The notes: generated by a model from the letters alone, not told the origin. A stretch of 64,000 bases of DNA from a bacterium BMS3Abin02 (GCA_002897675.1 BDSU01000045.1:23282-87281), one strand, 5' to 3'; counted from the stretch's first letter, positions 10,855 through 43,125 are shown. Numbers and translations: made by a program.

Positions 10855-10903
10855 GAACCCAGGGTTCGCAGGCACGCTCAGCGCACCTACGAGCCCAGGG
10901 TTC
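10855..10903. repeat. 49-bp palindromic interspersed repeat, copy A
   Basis: gaacccagggttcgcaggcacgc-tca-gcgcacctacgagcccagggttc. Shares both termini and the 3' arm with copies at 18109 and 43077. It lies 8 nt after the response-regulator stop and contains the stop codon of the truncated parA fragment. Confidence 0.8.
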
Positions 10904-11033
10904 AACGATATTGAGGATCGAGATCGACCAGAAGCACATCGAGGCCCAGGTCCACGAAGGCGGCGCCGAGGGTCTGGACGGTCGTCGTCTTGGCGACCCC
11001 ACCCTTCTGGTTGGCGACCGCGATGATGTCCAT
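10902..11033 (-). pseudogene. truncated ParA/Soj-family ATPase fragment (N-terminal 43 aa only, Walker A present)
   Basis: MDIIAVANQKGGVAKTTTVQTLGAAFVDLGLDVLLVDLDPQYR* is a canonical ParA N-terminus with KGGVAKTT, terminated by a stop lying inside the palindromic repeat. The in-frame upstream extension of the track ORF is low-complexity and overlaps the + strand gene. Confidence 0.55.
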
Positions 11034-11232
11034 GGAGGAAGTGTAGGTTGTGTCGGGATGTCGGGATCTGGCAAGAGATCGTCTCCCGACGGTTCCTTGC
11101 GTCGTGGTCGTCGTGGTCTCGGTGCCCCGTGCCGGCGGTGTGTCTGACCGGATCCGACCATCGGCACCGGCCTTCCGACGAGATCGTGGCGAGTCGATTC
11201 CCAGGACCTTATGGTGGACACGGAGGGAAGTG

Positions 11233-11688
11233 ATGACGGAGTTCTGGAGGAGATGGCTGATCGTCGCAGCGGGAGTCACTGCCCTGGCCGGGTTGGGGTT
11301 TGCGGCTTCGGCGGCGGTGGAGGCGACCGGAGTCCTCCGCGCCATCTTCAGGCTCGTCTACCTCCCGGGTGAGCTGCAGGCGCCCGCCGGCGAGGTGGCG
11401 TCGTTCTCGATCGGCGTGGCGGGTGCGGTGATGATGGGTTGGGCCGCGATGATGCTCGTCCTGCTCGGCAGTCGGAATGCGAGCGTCCTGCCCTCGACGT
11501 GGTGGGCGTTGACGGTCGGCTTGCTCGTCTGGTTCGTCGTGGACGCCATTGTGTCGATCACTTCGGGCGCCATCGGCAACGTTGTCCTGAACGTCGCCTT
11601 TCTTGCGCTGTTCACGCCACCCCTCATCCTCACGCGACCCGGCCGCGCCCGAATCGCGGCCGGCGGAACTTCGGCTACCCACACGTAA
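11233..11688 (+). CDS. hypothetical membrane protein (151 aa)
   Basis: Start at the ATG (11233) preceded by GGAGGG; four hydrophobic helices (WLIVAAGVTALAGLGF..., MMGWAAMMLVLLG..., LTVGLLVWFVVDAIV..., VVLNVAFLALF). Confidence 0.45.
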   Translation: MTEFWRRWLIVAAGVTALAGLGFAASAAVEATGVLRAIFRLVYLPGELQAPAGEVASFSIGVAGAVMMGWAAMMLVLLGSRNASVLPSTWWALTVGLLVWFVVDAIVSITSGAIGNVVLNVAFLALFTPPLILTRPGRARIAAGGTSATHT

Positions 11689-11882
11689 TCCCCGGCCGTG
11701 TCCCCATGAGGATCGTATCCCGGGGTACGTCGGCCATGCAGACCGGAGCCCGGATGTGCCAGGGATGATTCACGACGGTGATGTCGTGGTACGGGCCTTC
11801 GCCATGCTCGGACGAGTCTGGGGTGGCACCCGGCACCCCACAGAGGATTGCCGGCACCTGGCCCGGTCGGGGCGGGGATCCG

Positions 11883-12620
11883 TCATGTCTCCGGTCTGCG
11901 GTAGATCGACAGGTGTTGTTCACTGCGCGCGGTGAATGCGTGGCGCTTCCAGTCCTCCCACCGGTGTTCCAGGTCGAGGCCGGCAAGCCGGGCCATGAGA
12001 TCCAGCTCGGCCGGGTATGCGTAGCGAATCGTGACCGGGAAGAAGTCGATCGAGTCTTTGGAGAGGACGATCTTCCGGCTTTGCACGAGCTGGTTCGCCT
12101 GATCGTGCAGATCCACGTTGAGCGTGGCCGATTCCGGCTCGATCTTGGTCACGTAAGTTCTCTGACCACGGTCGAAGCGGGTCAGGTCCGGGATGAACGC
12201 CTCGATCAGGAAGCGTCCTCCCGGCAGGAGGCGGTTGGCGACCCGGCTGAAGCATCGCACCTGGTCGTCCTGGGTGAGCAGTGCGAAGAACGTGTTGAAT
12301 GCCGCGTAGATCAGGGAGAACGAGCCCTCGACGGGAACGTCTGCGAAGTCGCCGATCACGACGGGGATGTCCGCACCTCCGGGTTTCTCCCGAAGCCGGG
12401 CGACCATCGCCGTGGATGCGTCGACACCGTGGACCTCGACTCCACGTGCACGAAGCGGCAGAGCGATTCTGCCGGTGCCGACTCCCAGTTCGAGAACAGG
12501 ACCGGCACCGGCGAGGTCGCTCAGCAGCGCTACGGCGTCACCTGGGTCGAGCTGCTCATACAGATCGTCGTAGACGCCGGCAATGCGGTCACCGTACGTG
12601 CATGCCTCATAAGCGTCCAT
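11883..12620 (-). CDS. class I SAM-dependent methyltransferase
   Basis: Motif I VLELGVGTGRIALPL, acidic loop EVHGVDAS, motif post-II LLPGGRFLIE. Start at MDAYEACTYG, ATG located at 12620. Confidence 0.75.
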   Translation of the reverse strand: MDAYEACTYGDRIAGVYDDLYEQLDPGDAVALLSDLAGAGPVLELGVGTGRIALPLRARGVEVHGVDASTAMVARLREKPGGADIPVVIGDFADVPVEGSFSLIYAAFNTFFALLTQDDQVRCFSRVANRLLPGGRFLIEAFIPDLTRFDRGQRTYVTKIEPESATLNVDLHDQANQLVQSRKIVLSKDSIDFFPVTIRYAYPAELDLMARLAGLDLEHRWEDWKRHAFTARSEQHLSIYRRPET

Positions 12621-12703
12621 ACGCCGATGCTCGCAGAACTCACGGGACGACGCGGGATGTTTTCGAGAGACGCCCGCGGACGTGGGGCGTCTCTCGCTCT
12701 CGT

Positions 12704-13285
12704 TCAGTCCGTATGGATCTCCGTGCCCAGAAGTTCGAGGAACAGCGCCAGCCATTTCGGATGTGCCGGCCAGGCCGGTGCGGTCACGAAGTTCCCGTCG
12801 ACGACTGCATCGTCGATTGCGATGTCCGCGAACTCCGCACCGGCGCTGGTCACGTCTGGTCCTACGGCCGGGTAGGCGGAGATCCGCCGACCATTGATGA
12901 CGCCGGCTGCTGCGAGCACCTGGGCGCCGTGGCAGACCGCAGCGATCGGCTTGTTGTTCTCGGCGAAGTGGCGGGTGACCTCGATGACCTTCGCGTCGAG
13001 CCTGATGTACTCCGGAGCCCGTCCTCCCGCGATCAGCAGGGCGTCGTAGTCGGCAGGATCGACGTCGGCGAACGTGGTGTTGAGGGTGAAGTTGTGCCCG
13101 GGCTTCTCACTGTACGTCTGGTCGCCTTCGAAGTCGTGAATCGCGGTACGGATCTGCTCTCCGCCCGCCTTGTCCGGACACACCGTGTGCACCGTATGAC
13201 CGACCATCTGGAGCGCCTGAAACGGCACCATCGTCTCGTAATCTTCCGCGAAGTCTCCAACGAGCATGAGGATCTTCTTGGCCAT
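12704..13285 (-). CDS. DJ-1/PfpI family protein (intracellular protease/amidase-type glutamine amidotransferase fold)
   Basis: [15 protein letters not shown]...[14 protein letters not shown]...[16 protein letters not shown]; conserved nucleophile-elbow Cys-His. Confidence 0.85.
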
Positions 13286-13602
13286 GACCTCTCCTTCCTC
13301 ACGACCAACCGTTGGCCGCTCCTACATCCATACTCGCGCGCGCCGGCCCGGGTTGGGACGGGAACGGCGGTTTTTCGGAATCTGTTCGTTCTCGTACGAG
13401 TCGGCGCACAGGGTTCGCCGCGAGAAGGGACGGGGACTCACGGTGACACACCCGTTCGGAAGTGTGGAACCCGGCGTTTTGCCGTGCGAATGCAAATGGG
13501 GATTCCGGCGACGGCCTTCGGTAGCATGGCGTTCAGCACCGGAGCCGCTGGAGCCACGGTTTCCAGCGGCCGCTCTTCAGCCAGAGATTCGAGGAGATCA
13601 CG

Positions 13603-16314
<2,712 letters not shown>

Positions 16315-16330
16315 CCACACCGGTATCGAC

Positions 16331-16366
16331 ACGAGAGGGGCGCCCGGCCGGGCGCCCCTCTCGTGT
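16331..16366. terminator. perfect 36-nt GC-rich palindrome (bidirectional terminator candidate) between convergent ppdK and the anti-sigma gene
   Basis: cacgagaggggcgcccgg|ccgggcgcccctctcgtg; perfect 18-bp arms; 17 nt after the ppdK stop. Confidence 0.55.
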
Positions 16367-16385
16367 GGATGATCACAGGCGGTGC

Positions 16386-17384
16386 TTATGGATGTGTGGT
16401 TCCCGGACCAGAACCGTTTCCGCCCGAATCGCCGGTCCCATCTCGGAGGCCGGCGTCCGAACCGGACGTGGCCGGCATCGTCGTTGGATTCGTCGGCATG
16501 GTCGGCATTGCCGGGACGGTGATCGTCGGTCTGGTCGGCATCTCGGGGACGGTGATCGTTGGTCTGGTCGGCATCTCGGGGACGGTGATCGTTGTGGTCG
16601 GCCGTCCCACCTCCTGCTTCATCTGGCGGGTCATCTCTTGGGTTGTCTCTCGAACTTGCCGTGCCGTTTCCGCCACATGTTGAACGTTGATGTCCTGCTG
16701 CTTCATCTCTTGAGACATGAGTCGCAGCATCTCGGCCACTTGATCCCGGTACTCCTGGGTGGCCTGGTACCCCTTGGCGTCGGTGTGCTGGGCGGCGACA
16801 TGTGCAGCCGCCTCCTCGAGCGCCGAAGCGGCCTGCTCGAGACCGCGGTCGCGGTCGACTCTCCCGATTGCCTTGCCTGCGAACTCGAGGCCTTCTGCGA
16901 TGTGGTCCTGAGCAACAAGTCGCTGTGCTTCCTGGAGCCGTTCGGTCGTACCACCGTTGAACACGCCGACATGCTCGAGAGCGATGTCGACTCCGTACAA
17001 GGGATCGCCGGGCGCCGACTGATTCGCGATAGCGCCGACTCCACCCGTCACAGCGGCCAGCGCAACGGATGCAGCCAGCACCTTGGTCAGGATGGTGAAT
17101 ATGAAACTCGTGAACACGGTGCGTCTCCTCCATCGATATCTCTTTGATTCCCGGCTTCTGGCCGGGCGTGGGGAGAGACGGGCGGCTTCCGCAGCCGCGA
17201 CGATCTGCCGGGCGCCCAGCGCCGGATCGACGGATTCGGAACCGGTGTCCCGAATCCGTTCGACCAGCGCCGCGACATCGGCAAGGTCGGCAAGAGCGGA
17301 CCCGTTGAGGATCGCCTCGATCTCCTGGTCGCTGAGGCTGTGGAACTTTGCCATCTCGTGTTCGTTACCGTTCGAGCGTCTCAA
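16386..17384 (-). CDS. anti-sigma factor-like membrane protein with a Pro/Thr-rich repeat C-terminus
   Basis: Immediately downstream of, and overlapping (ATGA), the ECF sigma gene. Single TM segment (RRTVFTSFIFTILTKVLAASVALAAVTGGVGAI). Extracytoplasmic tail has ITVPEMPTRPT x3 encoded by a 33-bp tandem DNA repeat at ~16480-16580. Start could instead be Met-11 (MAKFHSL, 17354). Confidence 0.55.
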   Translation of the reverse strand: MRRSNGNEHEMAKFHSLSDQEIEAILNGSALADLADVAALVERIRDTGSESVDPALGARQIVAAAEAARLSPRPARSRESKRYRWRRRTVFTSFIFTILTKVLAASVALAAVTGGVGAIANQSAPGDPLYGVDIALEHVGVFNGGTTERLQEAQRLVAQDHIAEGLEFAGKAIGRVDRDRGLEQAASALEEAAAHVAAQHTDAKGYQATQEYRDQVAEMLRLMSQEMKQQDINVQHVAETARQVRETTQEMTRQMKQEVGRPTTTITVPEMPTRPTITVPEMPTRPTITVPAMPTMPTNPTTMPATSGSDAGLRDGTGDSGGNGSGPGTTHP

Positions 17385-17941
17385 AGGGGTACGTCCTTTG
17401 CGAGCTCTTTTCGGAGGGCGTTCAGTCCCCGACGCTGGAGCGCCTTGACCGCGCCGGGACGCTTTCTCAGGATGTGCGCGATCTCCGTCACGGTGAGCCC
17501 CCCGATGATGCGCAGAGTGAGGACGTCACGTTGGTCATGCGAGAGACCTTTGAGGCTCTGTCGAATATCCCTCGTAGCCAGGTCCGTCATTGCTTCGGCT
17601 TCGGCGGATTGCCGAGGGTCCGATATTGCATCGAGCTCCTGGTCCTCACCGATGAGATGTTCCCTGTGCCGGGATCGTTTGCGTCGTTCATCGATGAGAC
17701 GGTGGTGGGCGACCATGAAGACCCAGGAGCGGAAGGCGGCCTCGTCACCTTTGAATGTCCCGATGTTTCGGGCCAGTTGGAGGAACACGTCGCCAAGGCG
17801 GTCTTCAGGGTCGGAGGCGCCGCGTGATCTGAGGTAACCGAGAACCTGTCCGGCGAGGTCGTGGTAGAGCACTTCCCACGCCCATTCGGCCCCCGTCTGG
17901 GCGGAGGCGAGTACAGAATCGAAACTTGGCCCGATCACCAT
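17381..17941 (-). CDS. ECF (sigma-70 family) RNA polymerase sigma factor
   Basis: Region 2 (VFLQLARNIGTFKGDEAAFRSWVFMVAHHRLIDERRKR) and region 4 HTH (QRDVLTLRIIGGLTVTEIAHILRKRPGAVKALQRRGLNALRK). Start at Met MVIGPSF, ATG found at 17941. Confidence 0.85.
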   Translation of the reverse strand: MVIGPSFDSVLASAQTGAEWAWEVLYHDLAGQVLGYLRSRGASDPEDRLGDVFLQLARNIGTFKGDEAAFRSWVFMVAHHRLIDERRKRSRHREHLIGEDQELDAISDPRQSAEAEAMTDLATRDIRQSLKGLSHDQRDVLTLRIIGGLTVTEIAHILRKRPGAVKALQRRGLNALRKELAKDVPL

Positions 17942-18108
17942 GTGGAGAAGAGTACGGCCGCGCCTGCAATCACAAAACCGGCCAGAGCGATGCGGGATCG
18001 TGTGCATCTCTCGGATGTCGCGGCAGGCCGCAGCGGTGCGAGGCCCCGTGCATGTACTCGTTACCGCCGAACGGTGACAAAAGGGTACGGCCGCCCCCCA
18101 CACTCATT

Positions 18109-18157
18109 GAACCCAGGGCTCAGGGACACCCACAGGGTCACTACGAGCCCAGGGTTC
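18109..18157. repeat. 49-bp palindromic interspersed repeat, copy B (most divergent 5' arm)
   Basis: gaacccagggctcagggacacccacagggtcactacgagcccagggttc; same length and termini as copies A and C; lies between the upstream membrane-protein stop and the ECF sigma start. Confidence 0.75.
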
Positions 18158-18179
18158 AGTCGTGGCGGCCGCCGAGGGA

Positions 18180-18968
18180 CTACCAGCCGACCCAGACCCC
18201 GAGAGCGGTGAGCAGCGCAACCATCAGGCCGACACCCATCTGGGTCCAACCGACGACCTTGGCAGGAACCGGCGGTCTGGTCAGTGAGACGATCGCGACG
18301 ATACCGAGCAGGCCGATCGCCACCGCGCCGAGCCATGGGAGCATTCCGACGGCGGCGCCTGCCGCAACGACCCCGAAGGCTGCGAGCTGCACCAGGTAGA
18401 TCCGCGCTCGATCGATCGACTTGTCCTTGAAACGGCGAACCATGCCCCGTGCAAGGACGATTGCAGCGACGTCTCTTGCCGCGAGGACGAGCCACAGTCC
18501 GAACGCCGGGATCCACTCCCATCCTGCCCCAATCGCGATCGCGGCCACGGTGGAGCCCATGGCGATCGATCCGGCCAGTTGCGGGGCCAGCGCGCGGTTG
18601 CGGCTGTGGGCGTCCGCCCGCAAGGAGAAGGCCGCAAAAGGCAGAGCGACGACCAGCGGCCACCAGAATGGGCCGAGCGTGGTGACAATGGCACCGGCAG
18701 CACCGGCGATTGCCACCGCCGAGTAGACGGCCGCGACTGCAAGCGCAGTGGTGGACCGGGGAAGCCATCGACCGCGGATGACATCGGTGGAGAACAGTTT
18801 GACGGGCCGTCGAGCCAGGAAGACGCCAAGCGCGGCCGCCGCGATTTCCCAGCCTGCCGGCGACGGCGCGACGAGGAGTCCCAAGATGATCGGCTCCAGC
18901 GTGAAGCCCCACCCGCCGTGCTCAGTCGGCATCGCCACCGACCGTAGGCGAACGGAAGGAGTGGTCAT
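18180..18968 (-). CDS. hypothetical polytopic membrane protein
   Basis: About 8 hydrophobic helices; start chosen at Met MTTPSVRL, which gives an ATGA overlap with the tag gene stop. The track ORF extends further upstream through low-complexity sequence. Confidence 0.45.
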   Translation of the reverse strand: MTTPSVRLRSVAMPTEHGGWGFTLEPIILGLLVAPSPAGWEIAAAALGVFLARRPVKLFSTDVIRGRWLPRSTTALAVAAVYSAVAIAGAAGAIVTTLGPFWWPLVVALPFAAFSLRADAHSRNRALAPQLAGSIAMGSTVAAIAIGAGWEWIPAFGLWLVLAARDVAAIVLARGMVRRFKDKSIDRARIYLVQLAAFGVVAAGAAVGMLPWLGAVAIGLLGIVAIVSLTRPPVPAKVVGWTQMGVGLMVALLTALGVWVGW

Positions 18969-19561
18969 CGCAGTTTCGCCGCCTCGACGGCCGACCTGAT
19001 CGAACAGCCATCGAGATGATCGTTCGTCATGCCGATGGCCTGCATGAAGGCGTAGATGACGGTCGGCCCGACGAACTTCCAACCCCGGCTGCGGAGATCC
19101 GCGCTCAGCGTCTTGGACTCTTCGGTGACGGCGGGGATGTCGTAGGTGGGGGCCTGCCCAGGAGTCGGTGCGAAACGCCACAGGTATGTCGCCAGGGATC
19201 CGAACTCGTCGATCATTCCCAGAGCGAGTCGGGCATTGGTGATCGTCGCTTCGATCTTGCCTCTGTGCCGGATGATGCCCGGATTCGCCAGCAGAGCCTC
19301 GACGTCTCCGCTGTCATAGGACGCCACCGTCTCGATGTCGAAACCATCGAAAGCTTCCCGAAAGGCCTCCCGCTTGCGCAGAATCGTGATCCAGGCGAGC
19401 CCTGCCTGGAAGGCGTCGAGGCTGATCTTCTGGAATAGGGCCCGGTCGTCGGTTACCGGGTAACCCCACTCGTCGTCGTGGTAGGCCACGTACAGGGGAT
19501 CGTCCCCCGGCCACCAGCAGCGGACGACCCCGTCGGGTCCGATTCGCAGTCGATCGTTCAT
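18965..19561 (-). CDS. tag: DNA-3-methyladenine glycosylase I
   Basis: VVRCWWPGDDPLYVAYHDDEWGYPVTDDRALFQKISLDAFQAGLAWITILRKREAFREAFDGFD...GIIRHRGKIEATITNA...FVGPTVIYAFMQAIGMTNDH is the hallmark Tag sequence. ATG located at 19561. Confidence 0.85.
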   Translation of the reverse strand: MNDRLRIGPDGVVRCWWPGDDPLYVAYHDDEWGYPVTDDRALFQKISLDAFQAGLAWITILRKREAFREAFDGFDIETVASYDSGDVEALLANPGIIRHRGKIEATITNARLALGMIDEFGSLATYLWRFAPTPGQAPTYDIPAVTEESKTLSADLRSRGWKFVGPTVIYAFMQAIGMTNDHLDGCSIRSAVEAAKLR

Positions 19562-19572
19562 CGGCAAGATGA

Positions 19573-20115: not shown

Positions 20116-20118
20116 CCA

Positions 20119-21945: not shown

Positions 21946-22049
21946 CGCTTCCCTTTCTGTATCACCTGGAGGACCGTGCGGTCACTCCGTGTGGATCAAC
22001 CCGGGAAACCCGGGATAGTTTGCCATTGTTTGCATTATCGCATTTTCTG

Positions 22050-33125: not shown

Positions 33126-34250
33126 CTAGTTGCCGGCCAGATCCAGGAATGCCAACGGGCTGACAGGCGGCGCCTGGAAACGCACGTACCCGTGACCGGT
33201 CATACCGTGGCAGGCGTTGCAGGCTGCTATCGCAGAAGCGTAGGAAGTCTCGAACGCTGCCTTGTCCTTGGCGTTGATCGCGTCGACCACGGCCTGAAGT
33301 GGGCCCTGCTCGAAGGTCTTGAGCAAATCGGCATTGGCGGGCCGGGTTGTCTCTCCGACTTCCTGGTACTCGACAGCTTCCTTGATCTGGTATGCGGCGT
33401 GATCCCAGTTGCCGGCGTCGACTGCCAGCTTTGCGAGCGCGAACCGCTGACCATACTCCATCATGATCGTGCCGAGACCCGGCTGGATGTTCCACAGTGT
33501 CAGACCGCGATCGATGTTGTTCATCCGATCGGTGATCATCGCCTTGGCGTCATCCAAGGTCGGAGTTCCTTCCGGTGCGGTCCATGGCGCCAGTTCGTGA
33601 GAGCCTTCCGGTCCTGGTGCGGCCGATTCACTGGCAGCGGCGACGAGGAACGCCTGCGGGCTGGTGGTCGGCGTCTGGAACCGCACGTAGGCGTGTCCGG
33701 TGCCGACGTGGCACTGGTTGCAGCCGGTGACGGCCGCTTCGTAGGCACTGTCGAACGCGGACTTGTCCATCGCCACGATCGCGTCTGTGACCGGGTCCAG
33801 GTATGTGTGCTCGAAGGACGCAAGTAGTTCGGCCTTGCCGGGTCGTGTCGCTTCTCCGACTTCCTGGATCTCGATCTGCTCCTTCAACTGGTACTGGGCC
33901 ATACCCCAGTCGCCGGCGTCGGCAGCTTGCTTCGTCATCGCGAAGCGCTTTCCGTACTCGATCATCACGGTGCCGAGACCTGGCTGGATGTCCCAGAGGG
34001 TCAGATCACGGTTGGACGTGTTGAACGTGTCCATGATGAGCTGCTGAACTTGCAGCGCGGTGACGCCCTCGACAGGCGCCGCCGTCGTGGTGGGCGCGGC
34101 CGCGGTGGTGGGCGCCGCCGTCGTCGTGGGCGCCGCCGTCGTCGTGGGCGCCGTCGTCGTCGTCGTCGTGGTTCCCGTGTTGGTGCAAGCAGCGACCGTT
34201 AGTGCGAGGGCAAGTATCAGTGATGCTATCCCAATGGGTTTCTTCCTCAT
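33126..34250 (-). CDS. lipoprotein with two tandem helical CXXCH (c-type haem-binding motif) domains, cytochrome c'-like
   Basis: Lipobox LALALTVAAC then a Thr/Ala/Pro linker. Two ~150-aa repeats, each ending in CXXCH (GCNQCHVGTGHAYVRFQ and ACNACHGMTGHGYVRFQ) and each preceded by ...LTLWDIQPGLGTVMIEYGKRFA... / ...LTLWNIQPGLGTIMMEYGQRFA.... Confidence 0.55.
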   Translation of the reverse strand: MRKKPIGIASLILALALTVAACTNTGTTTTTTTAPTTTAAPTTTAAPTTAAAPTTTAAPVEGVTALQVQQLIMDTFNTSNRDLTLWDIQPGLGTVMIEYGKRFAMTKQAADAGDWGMAQYQLKEQIEIQEVGEATRPGKAELLASFEHTYLDPVTDAIVAMDKSAFDSAYEAAVTGCNQCHVGTGHAYVRFQTPTTSPQAFLVAAASESAAPGPEGSHELAPWTAPEGTPTLDDAKAMITDRMNNIDRGLTLWNIQPGLGTIMMEYGQRFALAKLAVDAGNWDHAAYQIKEAVEYQEVGETTRPANADLLKTFEQGPLQAVVDAINAKDKAAFETSYASAIAACNACHGMTGHGYVRFQAPPVSPLAFLDLAGN

Positions 34251-34558
34251 GATCCGCTCCCTCCGTGGTGGTATTAGGATCATAGTGAGATTGTATTGCA
34301 CGGCATAATGGTGTTCAGGGCATGGGGTCTCTTTATGGTTGATGCACGTTCATCCCTATTGTTCGTGCATGGTGACTGTGACTGTCCACTCCTACCGATT
34401 GCTACCCAGCATCCATTCATGTCCCCATGGTTGATGCAGACATATGGCGTTGCATTATCAGAGTTATTGCAGATATGCTTATGACCATCTGCACTTCCAC
34501 TGCACCAGGGCCAAAAGACCCTATATGGATGTGACAAAAGTCCCTTCTTATGTCCAAT

Positions 34559-36253
34559 TCAGTCCGGGACTTCGCTGGGCAGAGGGAACCAGCGCATGGC
34601 TTCTGCGGAGGGTGACAGCCTGATCGGCTCACCATCGAACGGTACCGGGGACTGCCCGAGGATCCGACGCGCCGCAGACAGATAGGTCGGAAGGCGATCG
34701 AGGGATTCGACCAGTCGACGCTTCGGGTAGGTCATCGCCGCTCCCTCGTAGGCAATATCGGCAAGTGCCATCGGAGGCGTGCCGGTCTCCGCCCGATGCC
34801 GCCACACGGCTGTTGCAGGGTCGACGTTGTACCGGCTCAGGACGCGCCAACCGCCGTTGGCGATGAGGTGCACTGCCTCGACGATGTAGGAAAACTCTTC
34901 CTCTGCGATGAAATAGTTGAAGTTCACACGAGCCCATCCCGGCTTGATGACCTCGCAGCCGTCCTCGACTTCCATCTCGAGTCGCCGACTCATCTCGCTG
35001 TCGATACCGAGGAGACGATGTCCGTACGGTCCTGCGCAGGAACAACCGCCACGCGCCTGGATGCCGAAGAGATCGTTCAGGAGTGCAACGACGTAGTTGT
35101 GATGGAGCCACCTGTCATCCCCGAAACGCTCCGGGGCGCGCAGCTCGAACGACACGATCGAGAGTCGATCGGCGTCGGGGTTGCCGAGGATGCGGATGTT
35201 TGGATCGCTCCGCCACGAATCGATTGCCCGACGGATGAACGCGGATTCGCGGCGCCGGATCTCGTCGGGTCCGACCGTCTCCTTGAGTTGGAACACGAGT
35301 CCGGCTCTGATCGACTCGATGATCGCCGGTGTGCCGCCTTCCTCACGGTGCTCCTGGTCGCGGAGGTAGTGATGCTCGAACGAGCTCACGTAGCTGACCG
35401 TTCCTCCGCCCGGTACCGACGGAACCCGGTTGTGGAGGAGGTCGCGACGTACAGCGAGCACGCCGGGAGTCTGTGGCCCGCCGATGAACTTGTGTGGAGA
35501 GACGAACACGGCGTCTTTGTAGTCGTCACCGTGGGTGTTCGGGGATCGGAGCTCGACCGCGACGTAGGGTGCCGCAGCCGCGAAATCCCAAAACGACAAG
35601 GCACCGTGACGGTGCAGCAACGACGAGACCGCCGAGGCGTCGGTGATGATGCCTGTGACGTTGGAGGCAGCGGAGAAACTGCCGATCCGCAGGGGACGGT
35701 CCCTGTATTCGACGAGCATTGTTTCGAGGTGTCCGAGGTCGACGTGGCCGTCGTCGTCTTCACGGATCTCGACAACGTCGGCGATCGATTCGAGCCAGGG
35801 GAGTTCGTTGGAATGATGCTCATACGGGCCGACGAAGACGACTGGCCTGTCCTTTGACGGAATATGGTCTGTGAGATGGTGGCGCTCGTCGAGCTCGGCC
35901 GGGATTCTGATGCCCAGGATTGTGGTCAGCTTGTCGATCGCTCCGGTCGACCCCGACCCACAGAAGATGACGGCGTGCTCATCGTCGTTGCCGCCGAGGC
36001 ATCGCTTGATGATCGATCTCGCCTCTTCGCGGAATCGAGTTGTCTGAAGTCCGGTTCCGGACGTCTCGGTATGGGTATTGGCGTAGAAGGGCAAGACCAC
36101 ATCGCGGATGTAGCTCTCGATGAACGACAGCGGCTTCCCCGAGGCCGTGTAGTCGGCATAGGTGACCCGCCGGGGGCCGAACGGACCGTCGATCGCCGTA
36201 TCGGCGCCGACTACAGAAGAGCGAATCAACTCGATGAGGTCTTCGGTTGCCAT
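34559..36253 (-). CDS. PLP-dependent aminotransferase class V family protein (cysteine desulfurase/epimerase-like fold)
   Basis: ANTHTETSGTG...FCGSGSTGAIDKL...SFSAASNVTGIITD...VFVSPHKFIGGPQTPGVLAVR matches the class V fold including the PLP-Lys region (SPHKF). Start at MATEDLIELI. Confidence 0.75.
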   Translation of the reverse strand: MATEDLIELIRSSVVGADTAIDGPFGPRRVTYADYTASGKPLSFIESYIRDVVLPFYANTHTETSGTGLQTTRFREEARSIIKRCLGGNDDEHAVIFCGSGSTGAIDKLTTILGIRIPAELDERHHLTDHIPSKDRPVVFVGPYEHHSNELPWLESIADVVEIREDDDGHVDLGHLETMLVEYRDRPLRIGSFSAASNVTGIITDASAVSSLLHRHGALSFWDFAAAAPYVAVELRSPNTHGDDYKDAVFVSPHKFIGGPQTPGVLAVRRDLLHNRVPSVPGGGTVSYVSSFEHHYLRDQEHREEGGTPAIIESIRAGLVFQLKETVGPDEIRRRESAFIRRAIDSWRSDPNIRILGNPDADRLSIVSFELRAPERFGDDRWLHHNYVVALLNDLFGIQARGGCSCAGPYGHRLLGIDSEMSRRLEMEVEDGCEVIKPGWARVNFNYFIAEEEFSYIVEAVHLIANGGWRVLSRYNVDPATAVWRHRAETGTPPMALADIAYEGAAMTYPKRRLVESLDRLPTYLSAARRILGQSPVPFDGEPIRLSPSAEAMRWFPLPSEVPD

Positions 36254-36371
36254 GCTCCGATGGTAGAGGGATCTGGCGGATTGCATCGGGTCGAGGATCG
36301 GGTCTTCTCGGTTCCCTTCTCACCGGTTTCTCATCTTCCTCTCACCATGTTCCTAAGCCTCGCCGGTACAG

Positions 36372-37064
36372 TTGTTCCTCATGAGTGGTTCCCGAATTCT
36401 GATCGCGGAAGACGATCGGGGCGTGCGCCAATCGCTGGAGCGCGCTCTGCGTTTCGAGGGTTACGATGTGTCCGCCGTCAAGGATGGCGCAGAGGCGCTG
36501 GAAGTGCTCATCCAGGACGTTCCCGAGCTGCTGCTACTGGACGTGATGATGCCGCACATCGACGGTCTTACCGTGTGCCGGCGACTCCGCGCCACGGGCA
36601 ACGATGTTCCGGTTCTCATGCTGACGGCACGGCACGAGGTTCGCGACCGGGTCGCCGGTCTCGACGCGGGTGCCGACGATTACCTCGTCAAGCCGTTCGC
36701 ATTGGAGGAATTGCTGGCGCGAATCCGTGCGCTCCTTCGGCGCAACGTACCTTCCGAAGGGGCCGAAACGCTGGCGGTCGGAGATCTGACTCTCGATCCC
36801 CGGACGCGCACGGTCATGAGGGGGGATCGTGAGCTCAACCTCACGAAGACCGAGTTCGATCTCCTGGAGCTGCTCCTCGTGAATGCCGGTGTGGTCCTGA
36901 CGAGAGAGGTCATCTACGAGCGAATCTGGGGGTACGATTTCGGAACGAGTTCGAACTCTCTGGATGTCTACATCGGCTACCTACGACGGAAGATGGAGGA
37001 AGGCGACGAGCCGAGGCTCATCAGCACCGTGCGCGGCGTCGGTTACGTGATTCGCAAGCCATGA
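36372..37064 (+). CDS. OmpR-family response regulator (MprA/MtrA-like)
   Basis: REC ([18 protein letters not shown]...[14 protein letters not shown]...) plus winged-helix Trans_reg_C ([34 protein letters not shown]...VYIGYLRRK). Confidence 0.9.
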
Positions 37065-38401
37065 AACTGAGAGCAAGACTCACGATGCTGGTTACCGGCG
37101 CGGTGGCACTTGCCGTGATTCTCGTTTCTGCTTCGGCGTTTTTTCTGGCTCGCGCGCAAATGCGTTCGGTGATCGACGAGTCGCTCCTGGAACGTATCGC
37201 GTTCGCCGCCCGAGTCGAGAATGCCAGCGGGATGATGCGCCGTGTAGGTCCGCTGCTGCTCGCCGGCGCTGCGGGTGATCTCTTCCGACTGGATCAATAC
37301 GTGCAGGTGGTCTTCGCCGATGGGTCGATCGAGACTCCTATCGGTCAGGAGCTCATACTGCCGGTTACCGATCATGACGTGGCGATCGCCGCGGGTGCCG
37401 AGCACGGGATCATTCGCGACGTCTACGTCGACGACCTGCACCTCAGGATGGTGACCGGCCCGGCCGGCAGGGGCCAGGCGGTCCAGTACGCGCGCCCGCT
37501 CACCGAGATCGACCAGACACTCGCCAAACTCGCATTGGTGCTGGGCCTCGTTGGTCTCGGCGGTGTTGCGATCGCGGCCGCCCTTGGGATGATCGTCTCA
37601 CGCAGCAGCCTCGCGCCGGTGATCGCACTCACGGCGACTGCGGAGCATGTCGCGGAAACGCAGGACCTCGAGGCACGGATCGACGTCGATCGCGACGACG
37701 AGATCGGTCGTCTTGCAGCGTCCTTCAACACGATGCTGGAGGCATTGGAGGCCTCGCGTGAGCAGCAGCGCAGGCTGGTTGCCGACGCCTCACACGAACT
37801 GCGAACACCTCTCACGAGCCTGCGCACCAACATCGAGTTCCTTGCCCGGGCCAAGGGGATGGGTGACGAAGACCGGTTGGCTCTCATGGACGACGTGTCC
37901 TTCGAGATGCGTGAGTTGAGCAGCCTGGTCGGGGAAATGGTCGAGCTCGCGACCGATCCGAAAGCAGGCGATGAGCCACTGGAGGGTGTCGACCTCACCG
38001 AGACGGTCCACGAGGTTGTCGGGCGGGCACAGCGGAGAACCGGAAGGACGATTGAGGTTTCGGGTGATGCCGGACAGATCGAGGGGCGTCCCAATTCGCT
38101 CCAACGTGCCATGTCGAACCTGATCGACAACGCCCACAAGTGGAGCCCTCCGGAGGCGCCGATAACGATCACCCTCTCGCCGGGCAGAGTCGAGGTCGCG
38201 GATCGCGGGCCAGGGATTCCTGCCGAAGATCTGGCCCATGTCTTCGACCGTTTCTATCGGGCGACCGAAGCGAGGTCCCTTCCCGGATCCGGGCTTGGTC
38301 TGTCGATCGTCAAGGAGATCGTCGAGAACCACGGTGGCAGTGTGTTCGCGTTCAATCGGGGCGGTGCTGTCGTCGGGTTCGAGATCCCGATTCTCACCTG
38401 A
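37061..38401 (+). CDS. sensor histidine kinase (HAMP-HisKA-HATPase_c; MprB-like)
   Basis: Two TM helices flanking a ~140-aa periplasmic loop, HAMP, H-box [16 protein letters not shown] boxes ([35 protein letters not shown]). ATGA overlap with the RR gene. Confidence 0.9.
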
Positions 38402-38484
38402 TTCTCACGTTCCTCTCAGGTTCCTCTCATGGCGGGGATGCATGCTGTACATGCAACTCGACAAAGAGTTCGTCTTCCCTCCCC

Positions 38485-38512
38485 AAAGACCCGGCCTTCG
38501 AGCCGGGTCTTT
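38485..38512 (+). terminator. hairpin terminator candidate downstream of the mprB-like HK
   Basis: aaagacccggc-cttcgag-ccgggtcttt, 11-bp stem, followed by TTG. Confidence 0.45.
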
Positions 38513-38943
38513 GCCTGGGTGAGACAGAGGAAGACCCGGAGACACTTCGGCAGTGAGCCGCCGCATGAGGACCAGCATGCGGATCTCCAGGTCCCGGTGG
38601 TCCGGTTGTTAGTCGCCACCTGAGGGAAGCGACATCGTGGCCGCTTCAGCGACCGGCCACCTCCAGAGTCCTGTCAAGACTGTTTACCAAGACCACCTCC
38701 TTTCTCTGGTGGCGTCATTCTGGCACAGAACGCCGCTCGATCTGCGGGGTTTTTTCGGCGGTGAGCCCCGGTTTGGGTCGAGGAGGGGGGAGATGGCTGG
38801 GCGGCTCCCTCTCTTCGTTGCTTCTCCTGATGGGGAACAGGCCGAGGCGAAGGGACGGAGCGTGAAGTGAGGCAGTGCTCGGAACATCCCGATCGCCTCG
38901 CCGGGTTCGGTACCGCCCCTCGATGGACGGGCCGGAGGGCTGC

Positions 38944-39990
38944 TCAGCGTTCACCGACGGTGACGTCGATCATGCCTTGCTGTCGACCTCGGACGACGGT
39001 CAGCTCGAGCACGTTCCCGGGCTCGGCAGCGACGATGGTCGCCTCGAGGCTCGACTCGTCTACCACGTTCTGACCATCCACCGCGATGATGATGTCGCCG
39101 ACACGGAGGCCCGCGATGTCGGCCGGACCGGTTGGGAGCACGGTCGTGACGATCACACCTTCGTTCGTCGCCAATCCGAAGCGCTGTTGGTACTCGCTGT
39201 TGTTCGTGACGAATCCGATGCCGATGAATGCCTTGCCGAGACCCTCGAGGATGCGGTCGACATCAGGGAGTGCAGTTTCGATCGGTATTGCAAAACCGAT
39301 GTTCTGGGCGTTGCCCGCGATCGCGGTGTTGATCCCGATCACCTCGCCGGCCTGGTTCAGCAGCGGCCCACCGGAGTTGCCGGGGTTGATTGCAGCGTCC
39401 GTTTGCAGGAGGCCGGTGAGCTGACCGGTTCGTGTCCGGATCGTGCGATCGACGGCGGAGAGAATGCCGACGGTCACCGTCGGCGAAGAGCTGTCCAGAC
39501 CAAGAGCGTTGCCGATGGCAACCACCGGGTCACCGACGTCCATCGAGTCTGCTCTTCCCATCGGGAGGGGCTCGAGACCCTCTGCATCATCGACTCTGAG
39601 GATTGCCACGTCGTCCGCCGGGAAACCGCCGATCACCTTGGCGGTTCGTATTCGGGCATCCTCTCCAACGATCGTCACCTGGTCTGCCCCCGCGATGACG
39701 TGGAAGTTGGTGAGGATGTGACCCTCGTTGTCGATGACGATGCCGGTACCGGTACCCGACTCGCTCAGTTCCTGGCGGAGGAACATATCGAGGGTGGCTC
39801 TGCTCTGCGTCACCGTGACGATGCCGGATCGGACCGCGTCCACGAGATCCGAGACGTCGTAGAGGATCACTCCTTTCTGCGCGACGGCGGGCGGGGTGGC
39901 GGGAGCCGTGGCCGGTGGTGCGTCGATCGTGTCGAGACCTGCGCATGCCGACAGCACGATCGAGAACACTGCAACGGAGATTCGGCGCAT
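38944..39990 (-). CDS. HtrA/DegP-family trypsin-like serine protease with a C-terminal PDZ domain (PepD-like)
   Basis: Signal/lipobox-like N-terminus (SIVLSACAG), catalytic His (ILTNFHVIAGA), Asp (DVAILRV), Ser (GNSGGPLL). PDZ region (GVIVTTVLPTGPADIAGLRVGDIIIAVDGQNV). Confidence 0.9.
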   Translation of the reverse strand: MRRISVAVFSIVLSACAGLDTIDAPPATAPATPPAVAQKGVILYDVSDLVDAVRSGIVTVTQSRATLDMFLRQELSESGTGTGIVIDNEGHILTNFHVIAGADQVTIVGEDARIRTAKVIGGFPADDVAILRVDDAEGLEPLPMGRADSMDVGDPVVAIGNALGLDSSSPTVTVGILSAVDRTIRTRTGQLTGLLQTDAAINPGNSGGPLLNQAGEVIGINTAIAGNAQNIGFAIPIETALPDVDRILEGLGKAFIGIGFVTNNSEYQQRFGLATNEGVIVTTVLPTGPADIAGLRVGDIIIAVDGQNVVDESSLEATIVAAEPGNVLELTVVRGRQQGMIDVTVGER

Positions 39991-40101
39991 GGCGGTGAGT
40001 GTACGTGCTCGTGGCGGGTGTCCTGGAGGTAGGGACGTTCGGCCCTTTCACAGAGGACCTTCGGGTGGATTCCAGGTACCCCCGGGGACGTTAGCAACGA
40101 C

Positions 40102-40374
40102 ATGGTGAGGCTCGTAAGGCCCGAGGTGTGTCCGGAGCCGGAATACGAGCTGCTTCACCCTGTCTGGTCTCGCCACGTGGATCCGGATCCTGTGGCGGTC
40201 GATGCGTTGGTCCCCGAGTTGAACGACAACCCGGCCAGGACCGTCGTGGCGCCGATGAGCGGCGACGAGACCGCTGCAACCGAGGCGTGGAAGGTGCACG
40301 TCGCCGACGAGGTGCCGGATGTGTGCATCCACGAAGATGGCATCAACGAATGGCCGGAGACGCTCGGTGGATGA
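40102..40374 (+). CDS. hypothetical small protein (90 aa)
   Basis: ORF only; acidic, no recognised motif; sits in an otherwise unassigned 650-bp gap. Confidence 0.2.
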   Translation: MVRLVRPEVCPEPEYELLHPVWSRHVDPDPVAVDALVPELNDNPARTVVAPMSGDETAATEAWKVHVADEVPDVCIHEDGINEWPETLGG

Positions 40375-40644
40375 GAAGCACAAGAGGCACACAGGCCGTG
40401 GGTGACGATCGACTCCGCCTTGTCTTCGCGTGCGCGCTTGCTGACGCATACCCGGCGGCGAAACCGGATCCCGAAGGGTACGAGCTGGAGTTCGCGTCCA
40501 AGGTGAAGCCGGCAGCGAAGGCCGGCCCATCCGCCGGCGGCTGCGGCTGACGTTCCCTCGTGTCCTCGATCGCTCGTGCCGTTTCGGATGAGGGGACGGG
40601 CCTCTGGAAGACCGACGGTCGACGGCTGACGGGTAGCGACTACA

Positions 40645-41319
40645 TTGGCGGCCGTGGAGAGCGCATTCCCTTTCCCCGAGGCGAACAAGCCGCTGGTCAT
40701 CGGTATCGCGGGCGGCTCCGGATCGGGCAAGACGACGATCGCCTCCGCCGTCGTGGCGGACGTGGGGGTCGGGGAAGTCGCCGTCCTCGAGCACGACTCG
40801 TACTACCGGCACTTCGAGGGACTCAGCTTCGAGGAGCGGTCCAGGATCAACTACGACCACCCCGGTTCACTCGAGACCGAGCTGCTGGTCCGGCATCTCG
40901 AGATGTTGCTCGACGGCCATTCGGTCGAGAAGCCTGTCTACGACTTCACGACGCATCTGCGGTCCTCCGAGACGGTCACCGTCGAACCGGCCCCGGTGAT
41001 CGTCGTGGACGGCATCCTGGTTCTCGCCGATTCTCAGCTTCGTGCCCTTCTGGATCTCAAGGTGTTCGTCGACACCGACCCCGATCTGAGGGTGCTGCGA
41101 CGCTTGCAGCGAGACATCGAAGAGCGCGGCAGGACGATGCGCTCGGTGATCGAGCAATACTTGGCCACGGTTCGACCGATGCACCTGCAGTTCGTCGAGC
41201 CGTCGAAGGTCCACGCGGACCTGATCATCCCGGAGGGGTACAACCGTGGTGCGGTCGCCGCCGTTCTGGGGCTGGTTCGGCAACGTCTCGACGGTGGCCC
41301 GGACGCCGGGTCCGTATAA
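40645..41319 (+). CDS. udk: uridine kinase
   Basis: P-loop LVIGIAGGSGSGKTT, DSYYR, DHPGSLE, VIVVDGILVLAD, Udk lid LRVLRRLQRDIEERGR. Confidence 0.85.
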   Translation: MAAVESAFPFPEANKPLVIGIAGGSGSGKTTIASAVVADVGVGEVAVLEHDSYYRHFEGLSFEERSRINYDHPGSLETELLVRHLEMLLDGHSVEKPVYDFTTHLRSSETVTVEPAPVIVVDGILVLADSQLRALLDLKVFVDTDPDLRVLRRLQRDIEERGRTMRSVIEQYLATVRPMHLQFVEPSKVHADLIIPEGYNRGAVAAVLGLVRQRLDGGPDAGSV

Positions 41320-41327
41320 TCGCTCGG

Positions 41328-42152
41328 ATGACACATCCAACAGTCGGAGTTCTCGGTGTCGGCGCAATGGGCGAGGCACTCGTCGTCGGCCTCCTGCATG
41401 CCTCCTGGGAGCCGGACGAATTGGCACTCGGCGTACGGCGAGAAGAGCAGCGTGAGGAACTGGCCGCTCGATACGGGTGTCCGGTCAGTCTCGACCCGGC
41501 TACCGTGATCACCGGTCGTGACGTGATCGTCGTCGCGGTGAAGCCTCGTTCGGTTCCACGGTTGCTCTCGGCAATCGCCGGTACGGTGACCGTGGAGCAA
41601 ACCGTGGTGTCTCTCGCAGCCGGCGTCGCGACGGGTCTCTACGAGGATGCGCTCGGTGACGTACCGGTCGTGCGGGCGATGCCGAACACTCCGGCGCTCG
41701 TCGACGAGGGTATCACCGGGATTGCGCCGGGTCGCTTTGCAGGCGAGCGCTCGATGCGGCACGCCGACATCGTGCTTCAGGCAGTTGGCGGCGTGATCCA
41801 GATGGAGGAGCAGCACCTGGACGCCGTTACCGCGGTATCCGGTACGGGTCCCGCCTACGCGTTCCTTCTTGCCGAGGCGCTCACGGAAGCAGCCGTCAGA
41901 GAGGGACTCTCCCGAAGTGTGGCCCAGCGCCTCGTCAATCAGACCATCAAGGGTGCCGGCGCACTCCTCGTGGAGACGGGCAAAGGACCGTTCGAACTGC
42001 GCGCGCAGGTGACATCGCCCGGTGGCACGACCGCCGCTGCGATGCACGTCCTGGAGGGACGGGGATTCCGGGCGTTGGTGGAGGACGCGGTCGCGGCAGC
42101 GGCGAACCGGTCACGGGAGCTGGGTGAGGCGGCTCGGCAGGAGGAGACGTAG
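41328..42152 (+). CDS. proC: pyrroline-5-carboxylate reductase
   Basis: N-terminal NADP Rossmann (VGVLGVGAMGEALVVGLL), C-terminal P5CR dimerisation motif (VTSPGGTTAAAMHVLE). Confidence 0.85.
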   Translation: MTHPTVGVLGVGAMGEALVVGLLHASWEPDELALGVRREEQREELAARYGCPVSLDPATVITGRDVIVVAVKPRSVPRLLSAIAGTVTVEQTVVSLAAGVATGLYEDALGDVPVVRAMPNTPALVDEGITGIAPGRFAGERSMRHADIVLQAVGGVIQMEEQHLDAVTAVSGTGPAYAFLLAEALTEAAVREGLSRSVAQRLVNQTIKGAGALLVETGKGPFELRAQVTSPGGTTAAAMHVLEGRGFRALVEDAVAAAANRSRELGEAARQEET

Positions 42153-42155
42153 GCG

Positions 42156-43070
42156 GTGTCGACACTCTTTCGCAAAGGTCTGCTGACGGTGACCGATCAG
42201 AAGCTGGTCCAGAAGTTGTTCACCGAGTACCAGGCCGGGCGTTCCGTCGCCACTCGGTTCGTCGCCGGCGAGAGTCTCGACGACGCAGTGGCTGTTGCCC
42301 GCCGGCTCAACGAGTCCGGCGCCATGGTCTCCCTCGACCATCTGGGCGAGGATGTGCACGACGCGGCATCGGCCAAGGCGGCAAAGGAGGACTACCTCGC
42401 CATTCTCGACCGGATCGCGTCAGAGGGTCTCGACGCCAACATCTCCATCAAACTGACGCAACTCGCAATGGCGTTCGATGAGGAGCAGACCCGGGAGGCA
42501 CTCGAGGAGCTCGCCACCAAGGCGGCCGAGGTGGGAACGTCGGTGACGATCGACATGGAGGAGTCCGCCTGGACCGGCACCACGATCGATCTGTATGAGA
42601 CGGTGCAGCGCAGTCACGGGAACCTGGGCATTGCCGTCCAGGCCTATCTGCACCGCACCGCAAGCGACCTCGAGCGGTTGATTCCGCTTGGTGGCCATAT
42701 CAGGTTGTGCAAAGGCGCCTATGCCGAACCGGCCGACATCGCCTACCAGTCCAAGGGAGAGGTCGACGAGTCGTACGACCGGCTGTTGGAGACCCTGATG
42801 GCTGCCGAAGCAACCAAGCCCGCGGTCGCGACCCACGACGAACGTCTGATCGAACGCGCCTATGTACTCGCCGGATCGAGAGAGGGACCGTTCGAGTTCC
42901 AGATGCTCTACGGGATCAGAGAGGACCTTCAGCACGAGATCGTGGCGAAGGGATATGCGCTGCGCGTGTACGTGCCGTACGGATCCCAGTGGTATCCCTA
43001 CCTGACCCGGCGACTTGCGGAGCGTCCCGCCAACCTCTGGTTCTTCGCGAGGGCACTGGTCGGCAGGTAA
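42156..43070 (+). CDS. proline dehydrogenase (monofunctional PRODH, TIM-barrel)
   Basis: RFVAGESLDDAV...VSLDHLGE...ISIKLTQL...CKGAYAE...FQMLYGIRED matches the PRODH family. GTG start at 42156. Confidence 0.85.
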   Translation: MSTLFRKGLLTVTDQKLVQKLFTEYQAGRSVATRFVAGESLDDAVAVARRLNESGAMVSLDHLGEDVHDAASAKAAKEDYLAILDRIASEGLDANISIKLTQLAMAFDEEQTREALEELATKAAEVGTSVTIDMEESAWTGTTIDLYETVQRSHGNLGIAVQAYLHRTASDLERLIPLGGHIRLCKGAYAEPADIAYQSKGEVDESYDRLLETLMAAEATKPAVATHDERLIERAYVLAGSREGPFEFQMLYGIREDLQHEIVAKGYALRVYVPYGSQWYPYLTRRLAERPANLWFFARALVGR

Positions 43071-43076
43071 CTCCCT

Positions 43077-43125
43077 GAACCCTGGGCTCGTAGGTGCGCT
43101 GGGCGCACCTACGAGCCCAGGGTTC
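43077..43125. repeat. 49-bp palindromic interspersed repeat, copy C (perfect palindrome)
   Basis: gaaccctgggctcgtaggtgcgc-tgg-gcgcacctacgagcccagggttc with 23-nt arms that are perfectly complementary; 6 nt after the PRODH stop, between convergent genes. Confidence 0.8.

Follow-up and report, generated by a model that had tools for sequence, protein, structure and literature searches.

A REP-like palindrome family of marine Acidimicrobiia and an AbiEi-DUF559 nuclease gene bracketed by its elements in related genomes

The DNA analyzed here is a stretch of 64,000 nucleotides (nt) assigned to bacterium BMS3Abin02 (GCA_002897675.1, BDSU01000045.1:23282-87281; hereafter, the window), and its source is an uncultured marine actinobacterium of the Acidimicrobiia type whose genes recur in several ENA, NCBI, and Logan assemblies. 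The window carries three palindromic elements of 49 nt, termed copies A, B, and C, which lie close to the stop codons of genes for a NarL/GerE-type response regulator, a YwiC-like protein, and a proline dehydrogenase, the last of these being the final gene of a proC-Pro_dh pair (Table 1). An earlier note made from the sequence had presented them as a family resembling repetitive extragenic palindromes (REPs) or MITEs (miniature transposable elements with inverted repeats). The three elements are exactly where that note placed them, copy C is indeed a perfect palindrome of two 23-nt arms around a 3-nt center (23-3-23), and the flanks of A, B, and C (immediately, cccc/aacg, catt/agtc, and ccct/gcag, respectively) are unrelated to one another. 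The 3' arm, which had been described as identical in all three, is so over its full 23 nt in A and C, but only over its outer 17 nt in B.

Each element is built of two near-palindromic modules of 13 bp, the left being GAACCCWGGGCTC and the right GAGCCCAGGGTTC, which are spaced 36 bp from start to start and are usually framed by CTRC and GYAG, in a layout of two 23-bp inverted arms split by 3 bp. The tetranucleotide GTAG/CTAC (or GCAG/CTGC) is internal, occupying element positions 14-17 and 33-36, where it is paired within the long stem. The 17-mer CTACGAGCCCAGGGTTC occurs exactly four times in the window (once in A and once in B, in the 3' arm, and twice in C, in either arm) against 0.12 times in shuffled sequences, and the 13-nt module GARCCCWGGGYTC occurs six times without a mismatch against an expectation of 0.5, always in pairs 36 nt apart. 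Applying a profile hidden Markov model (HMM) of 49 family members to the window returns A, B, and C alone (E values of 1e-10 to 1e-16; next best, 0.86), and scans with motifs and with this profile disclosed no diverged or asymmetric further copies in the window. Copy C is identical in four independent assemblies (L001 to L004). A fourth copy from the same organism lies upstream of the window, 13 nt past the stop codon of an ABC-2 permease gene and 85 nt ahead of the dnaK start, which brings the density to 4 copies per ~74 kb, or about 1 per 18 kb. The short-read contig L044 (Logan DRR093005_45708) ends exactly on the last base of copy A.

Table 1. Palindromic copies, adjoining genes, and other repeats (window coordinates unless another contig is named)
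Feature	Coordinates	Strand	Content or basis	Relation to the copies
Copy A	10855..10903		Modules 10855-10867 (GAACCCAGGGTTC) and 10891-10903 (GAGCCCAGGGTTC); inner 23 nt, GCAGGCACGCTCAGCGCACCTAC	
Copy B	18109..18157		Modules 18109-18121 and 18145-18157; inner 23 nt, AGGGACACCCACAGGGTCACTAC	
Copy C	43077..43125		GAACCCTGGGCTCGTAGGTGCGC TGG GCGCACCTACGAGCCCAGGGTTC, then GCAG	
Fourth copy, same organism	L193 378-426		TGAACCCAGGGCTCGTAGTGACCCTGGAGACCACTACGAGCCCTGGGTTCA	~9.6 kb upstream of window start
NarL/GerE-type response regulator	10215..10847	+	Pfam Response_reg 1e-21, GerE 5e-19; gene called in five assemblies	3' end adjoins copy A
parA/soj-like remnant	10902..11033	-	N-terminal 41 codons (MDIIAVANQKGGVAKTTT...DLDPQ), then YR and stop	
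Deletion junction	10904..10911		924 nt missing versus L182 (spacer and 3' four-fifths of parA)	
Segment without Pfam match	11067-11735		669 nt	
Peptidase_M15_4 remnant	11732-11875		Last 48 codons	
YwiC-like gene	18180..18968	-	Pfam YwiC 8e-19; gene call L041 17966-18754	Stop 22 nt from copy B
Proline dehydrogenase (Pro_dh)	42156..43070	+	Last gene of proC-Pro_dh	Stop 6 nt from copy C
4Fe-4S ferredoxin-domain gene	43137..44249	-	Convergent with Pro_dh	Stop 11 nt from copy C
Tandem repeat within an open reading frame	3335-3428		33 nt x2.8, in frame	
Tandem repeat within an open reading frame	16499-16594		33 nt x2.9, in frame	
Tandem repeat within an open reading frame	34075-34163		18 nt x4.9, in frame	
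Duplication inside one open reading frame	33307-33536 / 33808-34037		230 nt, 71% identity, 501 nt apart	
Repeat	53381-53484 / 56597-56700		104 nt, 88% identity, 3.2 kb apart	

Beyond this organism, a 17-mer scan of one genome per species yielded 36 loci, about 25 of them in metagenome-assembled genomes (MAGs) of Acidimicrobiia or Actinomycetota, and a metagenome scan with GAGCCCAGGGTTCGCAG gave at least 120 matches, a set from which chance or coding matches to the 17-mer were removed. (Coding repeats for collagen-like Gly-X-Y tracts, GGAGCCCAGGGTTCGCAGGG..., in L047 and L161 mimic the module and produce false positives in motif scans.) Across Acidimicrobiia MAGs and metagenomes there are at least about 59 distinct intergenic elements, each with a left module of GAACCCTGGGCTC or GAACTGTGGGCTG, 23 variable nt, and the right module GAGCCCAGGGTTC, usually followed by GCAG; in an alignment of 49 sequences, the right module and its flanking GCAG are near-invariant. 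Exact copies of the 17-mer are present even in fragmentary related MAGs (7 in CSMAG_619, 5 in 10C-St20-MC-01_bin.8, 4 in MAG194, and 3 in CSMAG_2834), and elements are kept at orthologous sites of different species. Viral contigs scanned with the 17-mer contained no match, and the only occurrences of the module sequences found in a search of literature text are coincidences with a mammalian primer and with vitamin D response elements.

The architecture of the window copies extends to this wider set. In 1.1 Mb of fetched loci, the spacing is 36 nt in 41 of the 59 neighboring module pairs no more than 200 nt apart among the matches listed, and at some loci (L046, L055, L065, and L156) modules follow one another in tandem at a period of 36 nt. 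What lies past the right module repeats, in many relatives, what lies past the left one. Folded as a family, the hairpin has 72% of its alignment cells paired, against 26 to 44% when slid, and its covariation score of 0.145 exceeds the 0.106 of shuffled alignments (0 of 500 reach it). Variants in L005, L006, L008, and L023 have an inner unit of 15 to 17 nt (AGCACCTATACGCA) that is tandemly duplicated, which makes the element longer. Two known sites of similar appearance were considered and set aside: the LexA "Cheo box" (CGAAC-N4-GTTCG) on account of the N5 spacing, the gene-end sites, and the 36-bp pairs seen here, and the integron attC site on account of the absence of GTTRRRY/RYYYAAC cores. 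The elements are a dispersed REP-like family in marine Acidimicrobiia and not a local oddity. This bears out the claim that the repeats are interspersed, lie outside genes in the manner of REPs, and form hairpins. Copies occur elsewhere in the organism, at orthologous sites of a sister species, and in many related genomes and metagenomes; neither of the two outcomes that the earlier note had named as fatal to it (copies confined to these three, with no conserved placement, or a larger duplicated block that explains them) was found.

Some elements of this family enclose a gene. At two loci, inverted elements ~1 kb apart flank homologous open reading frames whose product of ~300 amino acids (aa) joins an AbiEi_4 winged helix-turn-helix (wHTH) to a DUF559/REase_MTES_1575 domain (Pfam; DUF559 E value, 2e-5). 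In each of the six lineages to which the DNA motif led, the gene stands between two inverted elements whose conserved module and GCAG face outward, and a protein search, which returned 284 homologues at an E value of ≤1e-10, led to the same arrangement in each of the six that were looked up (49 to 68% identity). The gene is therefore bracketed in 12 of 12 related lineages and in four genomic contexts, namely, between proC and a Macro gene (the commonest), between sigma-CBS and DUF87 genes, between abhydrolase and DinB genes, and that of L069; one bracketed lineage has its module changed to GTACCCAGGGTTA/TAACCCTGGGTAC. Within a genome, the dispersed copies and those flanking the gene have a common inner sequence, and the gene itself is conserved and apparently single copy in related genomes. 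In seven relatives (L009, L030, L039, L026, L169, L172, and L176), the outer module of the upstream element stands ~25 to 30 nt from the start of the divergent proC gene, and the element must therefore overlap the proC promoter or leader. No AbiEii (DUF1814) toxin gene adjoins the gene in any context examined, the neighbors being proC, Macro, CBS, DUF87, abhydrolase, and DinB; a type IV AbiE toxin-antitoxin system was rejected for want of this DUF1814 nucleotidyltransferase partner. Pairing of such repeats with an AbiEi-DUF559 nuclease gene appears to be previously undescribed: the literature on DUF559, AbiEi, palindromic repeats, and REPIN/RAYT systems in Actinobacteria yielded no description of dispersed palindromes paired with this gene, and the nearest report is a survey in which DUF559 proteins are enriched among predicted targets of programmed inversion (PMC9881135).

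PADLOC AbiEi models match residues ~5 to 200 of the encoded protein (E value, 1e-24); a sequence search of the PDB with the protein gave no match, and a fold search was needed. In the AF2 model (pLDDT of 92), Foldseek assigns the first ~200 residues to the Streptococcus agalactiae AbiEi protein (6y8q; probability, 1.0) and the last ~100 to the catalytic domain of I-Bth0305I, a Vsr-like homing endonuclease (3r3p; probability, 1.0), and the DUF559 protein 3hrl (TM score, 0.76). Pfam, the predicted structure, and the alignment together place the C-terminal domain in the Vsr/DUF559/EDxHD group, with its D...ExD...H residues and PD-(D/E)XK-type fold, and with D233, E244, D246, and H251 invariant in 46 homologues, the nuclease site looks intact. 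The core of the DNA module contains CCWGG, which we take to be the classical Vsr/Dcm context. Like I-Bth0305I and the DUF559/Vsr repair endonucleases (3r3p and 3hrl, PMC3424549; Caulobacter VsrA, PMC12907096), the protein combines this C-terminal fold and its conserved acidic and His residues with a tethered, separate DNA-binding domain, an organization of site-specific nucleases; unlike that of I-Bth0305I, its gene is not in an intron or intein and appears to be chromosomal, syntenic, and vertically inherited. As for the N-terminal domain, S. agalactiae AbiEi binds two 23-bp inverted repeats 3 bp apart, Rv2827c of Mycobacterium tuberculosis binds tandem pairs of 23-bp repeats with a 13-bp spacer, and AbiEi-family proteins autoregulate through 23-bp inverted repeats (PMC7319586). 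Copy C has the exact 23-3-23 geometry of the AbiEi operator, and A and B follow the same geometry. From this match, together with the bracketing of its gene, we infer that the AbiEi-DUF559 protein is the cognate binder of the elements.

The association reaches beyond Acidimicrobiia. A profile of the full-length fusion matches 3,958 clusters (50% identity) at an E value of ≤1e-30; plasmid-borne homologues were absent at an E value of ≤1e-10, and distant ones were found at ≤0.01. Three distant homologues (26 to 30% identity) in cultured strains are each bracketed by palindromes of their own, unrelated in sequence: a 42-nt palindrome with a few extra copies in Tsukamurella tyrosinosolvens (L190, NZ_LR134454.1), a dispersed 60-nt palindrome in Arthrobacter sp. 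StoSoilB13 (L191, NZ_AP024648.1), and 20-nt modules with a GGGCCC core in Arthrobacter sp. ERGS1:01 (L192, NZ_CP012477.1). The StoSoilB13 palindrome was found at 21 and 14 places on two replicons, figures that correspond to at least ~10 and 7 loci, as a palindrome that is imperfect can score once on each strand. In these three, as in the 12 related lineages, an element is always present upstream of the AbiEi-DUF559 gene. Bracketing is thus general (15 of 15 examined), and dispersal is lineage dependent.

Comparison with sister species L182, which carries orthologous copies at site A (10641-10689) and site B (18817-18865), reveals how unevenly the elements evolve. Between the window and L182, the flanks of these sites are 81 to 92% identical and the modules agree at 24 to 26 of 26 positions, whereas agreement within the inner stretch is limited to 9 and 13 of 23 positions. 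Within L182, two nonorthologous copies match at 20 of 23 inner nt and differ by a flipped loop. Orthologous sites of L010 and L020 likewise have genome-specific inner sequences. Inner sequences that are peculiar to a genome, although the sites are orthologous, favor copying from one element to another, or replacement, over ordinary neutral drift.

All four known copies of the window organism are intergenic, each 6 to 22 nt past a stop codon, and two of them lie between convergent genes. The earlier note had put every copy within 10 nt of a stop codon or in an inter-operon gap, which is true of A (7 nt) and C (6 nt); B, 22 nt past the YwiC-like stop, departs from this, being also 167 nt before the called start of a gene for an extracytoplasmic function (ECF)-type sigma factor, with the sigma and YwiC-like genes both on the minus strand. 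As RNA, the three window copies fold into hairpins whose energies lie between -31 and -54 kcal/mol (z-scores, -4.2 to -10; copy A, -30.8 on the plus and -39.9 on the minus strand; copy B, -33 to -34; copy C, -51.8/-54.5 kcal/mol). A T-tract follows none of A, B, and C on either strand, such that the suggestion of a terminator fails in its canonical intrinsic form: the GC-rich hairpin is there at each copy, and the U-tract is not. A search of the whole window with Rfam 15 gave nothing at the gathering score and, below threshold, only generic hairpin matches to microRNA precursors (at the copies and one related locus); no tRNA or transfer-messenger RNA was found near the copies.

Copy A adjoins a deletion. 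A truncated parA remnant on the minus strand ends within it, the TGA stop codon being made up of the bases with which the element, read on that strand, begins; the remnant matches only positions 1 to 42 of the Pfam AAA_31/CbiA profile and is also recovered by tblastn with Soj. In L182, whose response regulator is 96% identical, the element occupies the same place and is followed by a spacer of ~300 nt and an intact parA gene of 250 aa. By blastn, L182 10000-10693 corresponds to window 10214-10907 and L182 11618-11772 to window 10912-11066, which puts the left breakpoint of the 924-nt deletion at a distance of 4 nt from where copy A ends on the right. Farther on, the Peptidase_M15_4 gene is intact in L182, whereas in the window the segment without a Pfam match replaces most of it. 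Inversion or translocation of parA was rejected, as tblastn finds the rest of the gene beside no other copy in the window and the comparison with L182 is one of simple deletion. The proposal that the elements are recombination hotspots gains one concrete case from this; with its start so close to copy A, the deletion lends support to the idea that the palindrome, as DNA, would act as a fragile site. A related species, L183 (response regulator 90% identical; locus at L183 10634-11928), has no element after the regulator; its place is taken by a GC-rich hairpin of the ordinary kind, beyond which lies a DUF222/HNH ("13E12-like") gene.

Several other repeats and one assembly break were noted in the window. 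Three open reading frames contain in-frame tandem repeats, of which those at 3335-3428 and 34075-34163 are reverse-complement-like tracts rich in Asp, His, and Val, and two longer repeats are listed with them in Table 1. Two ENA assemblies of the window organism both break between window positions ~27.35 kb and ~29.0 kb.

We consider it somewhat probable that this dispersed, REP-like family has the AbiEi-DUF559 nuclease as its cognate protein, and not a RAYT (REP-associated tyrosine transposase). Under such a scheme, each 23-bp arm of an element would be bound by a single monomer of the protein, the mode seen in characterized AbiEi operators. More speculatively, its nuclease domain might nick or cut them, recombinational repair after the cut might copy, homogenize, and occasionally disperse them, and the copy upstream of the gene might double as an autoregulatory operator. 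Copies would survive mainly just past stop codons, where insertion is harmless, the transcribed hairpin at such sites could block 3' exonucleases or help transcripts end, and the fragility of the palindrome would have given rise to the deletion beside copy A. It is possible, if doubtful, that this represents a second, non-HUH class of REP-type system in Actinomycetota, in which a single-copy AbiEi-Vsr/EDxHD gene with its own 23-3-23 sites acts, by cutting and repair, as an analogue of REPINs (REP doublets forming hairpins) and their RAYTs. Because the protein family is large (3,958 clusters), each lineage may carry its own coevolving palindrome family. A number of observations weigh against the nuclease as cognate protein. 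Binding and cleavage by it are wholly inferred. Its homologue is absent from the window and from the 10 kb upstream, and the link for the window organism therefore rests on the modules common to it and its relatives; the window proC gene also lacks the neighbor seen beside proC in those relatives. Most lineages hold the gene in the same syntenic slot, next to proC, so bracketing could consist of an operator and a terminator only, with no part in the spread of the repeats, and the 12 bracketed lineages represent four contexts and not 12 independent events. Dispersal is not obligatory, as ERGS1:01 has its palindromes around the gene and nowhere else. As for the hairpin itself, pairing is lacking in ~40% of the cells of the inner stem, and the members of one large subfamily (inner sequence, AGCACCTATACGCAC) are not palindromic. 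The gene contexts of the family elements (18 codirectional, 9 convergent, and 2 divergent) were counted with a crude home-made gene caller.

One alternative, which we think unlikely, reduces the elements to RNA-level signals, i.e., terminators without a U-tract (often bidirectional) or mRNA stabilizers at 3' ends, which selection on transcripts would maintain, and the gene link to the gene's own operator and terminator. The hairpins are very stable, and, as with intrinsic (Rho-independent) terminators, they are GC rich and stand 6 to 22 nt past the stop in every copy of the window organism, two of which separate convergent genes; across the family, 9 convergent contexts were counted against 2 divergent ones, the inner stem has compensatory changes, and L183 has its ordinary hairpin at the very spot past the response regulator where the element is missing. 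Unlike such terminators, however, the elements have no T-tract, keep their stem sequence across unrelated loci and species, and in many relatives lie directly upstream of start codons. Copies A and B are in opposite senses relative to their flanking genes, which makes a strand-specific RNA signal unlikely, and RNA pairing alone can account neither for the conservation of the 13-nt module across species while the inner stem varies freely nor for the fixed 36-nt spacing, the tandem arrays, and the nonpalindromic subfamily. Improbable, too, is that the elements are nonmoving operators of a regulon, with the AbiEi-like protein occupying them genome-wide as a transcription factor or nucleoid-associated protein whose nuclease domain is irrelevant to or inactive on them. 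The known operators of S. agalactiae (PabiEi) and M. tuberculosis (Prv2827c) consist of 23-bp repeats, inverted at 3 bp (49 bp in all) or in tandem pairs, upstream of the gene for an AbiEi-fold protein, and it is through such inverted repeats that the family autoregulates (PMC7319586); the invariable upstream element of the AbiEi-DUF559 gene and the persistence of elements at orthologous sites across species conform to this. Those operators, though, are single promoter sites of a toxin-antitoxin operon, whereas here AbiEii is missing, a nuclease domain with invariant catalytic residues is present, a second inverted copy lies past the gene, and the site (binding to which is predicted) is dispersed genome-wide, mostly at the 3' ends of unrelated genes. 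The elements are enriched between convergent genes and just past stop codons, not in divergent promoter regions, they form tandem arrays, one adjoins a deletion, and their genome-specific inner sequences point to copying or replacement, all of which speak against static operators.

That the elements are classical REPs or REPINs moved by a RAYT (Y1 HUH) encoded elsewhere, or MITEs derived from an insertion sequence (IS), is very improbable, for all that they are short, extragenic, palindromic, and multicopy, contain the GTAG/CTAC tetranucleotide, and often coincide with contig breaks. With the REPIN-RAYT systems of Pseudomonas and enterobacteria (PMC3116915 and PMC5581495), they have in common short extragenic hairpin palindromes that number in the tens, favor gene ends, and may form tandem arrays, a conserved single-copy protein gene between two inverted copies, vertical inheritance, and genome-specific variants. 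The differences lie in the defining parts. The one consistently bracketed gene encodes an AbiEi-fold wHTH and a PD-(D/E)XK Vsr/DUF559 nuclease, not a Y1 HUH transposase (PF01797); what is conserved is a near-palindromic module of 13 bp that recurs at a constant distance of 36 bp; GTAG/CTAC lies inside the element and not where the hairpin has its 5' foot; the host belongs to Actinomycetota; and mobility is putative. A tblastn search of 1.35 Mb of loci that carry elements, with IS200 TnpA and Escherichia coli RAYT as queries, found nothing adjacent to the elements and gave only weak matches, in unrelated chance-match loci. As MITEs they would qualify by their small, noncoding, intergenic nature and terminal inverted repeats, but copies A, B, and C have no target site duplications, no parent IS with a DDE transposase was seen, and the gene unit has at either end an entire element with both modules, not half of one. 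The combined REP/MITE-like label of the earlier note therefore suits the behavior of the elements, while classical REP/RAYT and MITE identities fail on the defining features tested. The bacterial interspersed mosaic elements (BIMEs) of E. coli, which are REP arrays of alternating orientation, resemble the 36-nt-period arrays in having tandem modules at fixed spacing but differ in sequence and host. Chance similarity or an assembly artifact, finally, has a negligible claim: the source contig is metagenome assembled and some contigs end at the repeat, but the shuffle expectations of 0.12 and 0.5 stand against 4 and 6 observed occurrences, the same sequence is present in at least five independent assemblies, related elements occur in long-read contigs, and a sister species has orthologous copies.

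REP-like repeats are common, but to our knowledge their origin and persistence are understood only for the proteobacterial REPIN-RAYT systems. If the link between the Acidimicrobiia elements and the AbiEi-DUF559 gene is functional, it would assign a role to the "DUF559 / AbiEi-domain" proteins, which form a very large family in Actinomycetota, would mean that partnerships between repeats and enzymes have evolved more than once, and would offer gene conversion, not transposition, as a route by which repeats spread. It would also explain why, in actinobacterial MAGs, contigs break recurrently and local deletions occur, and the pairing may account for the enrichment of DUF559 proteins among predicted targets of programmed inversion (PMC9881135).

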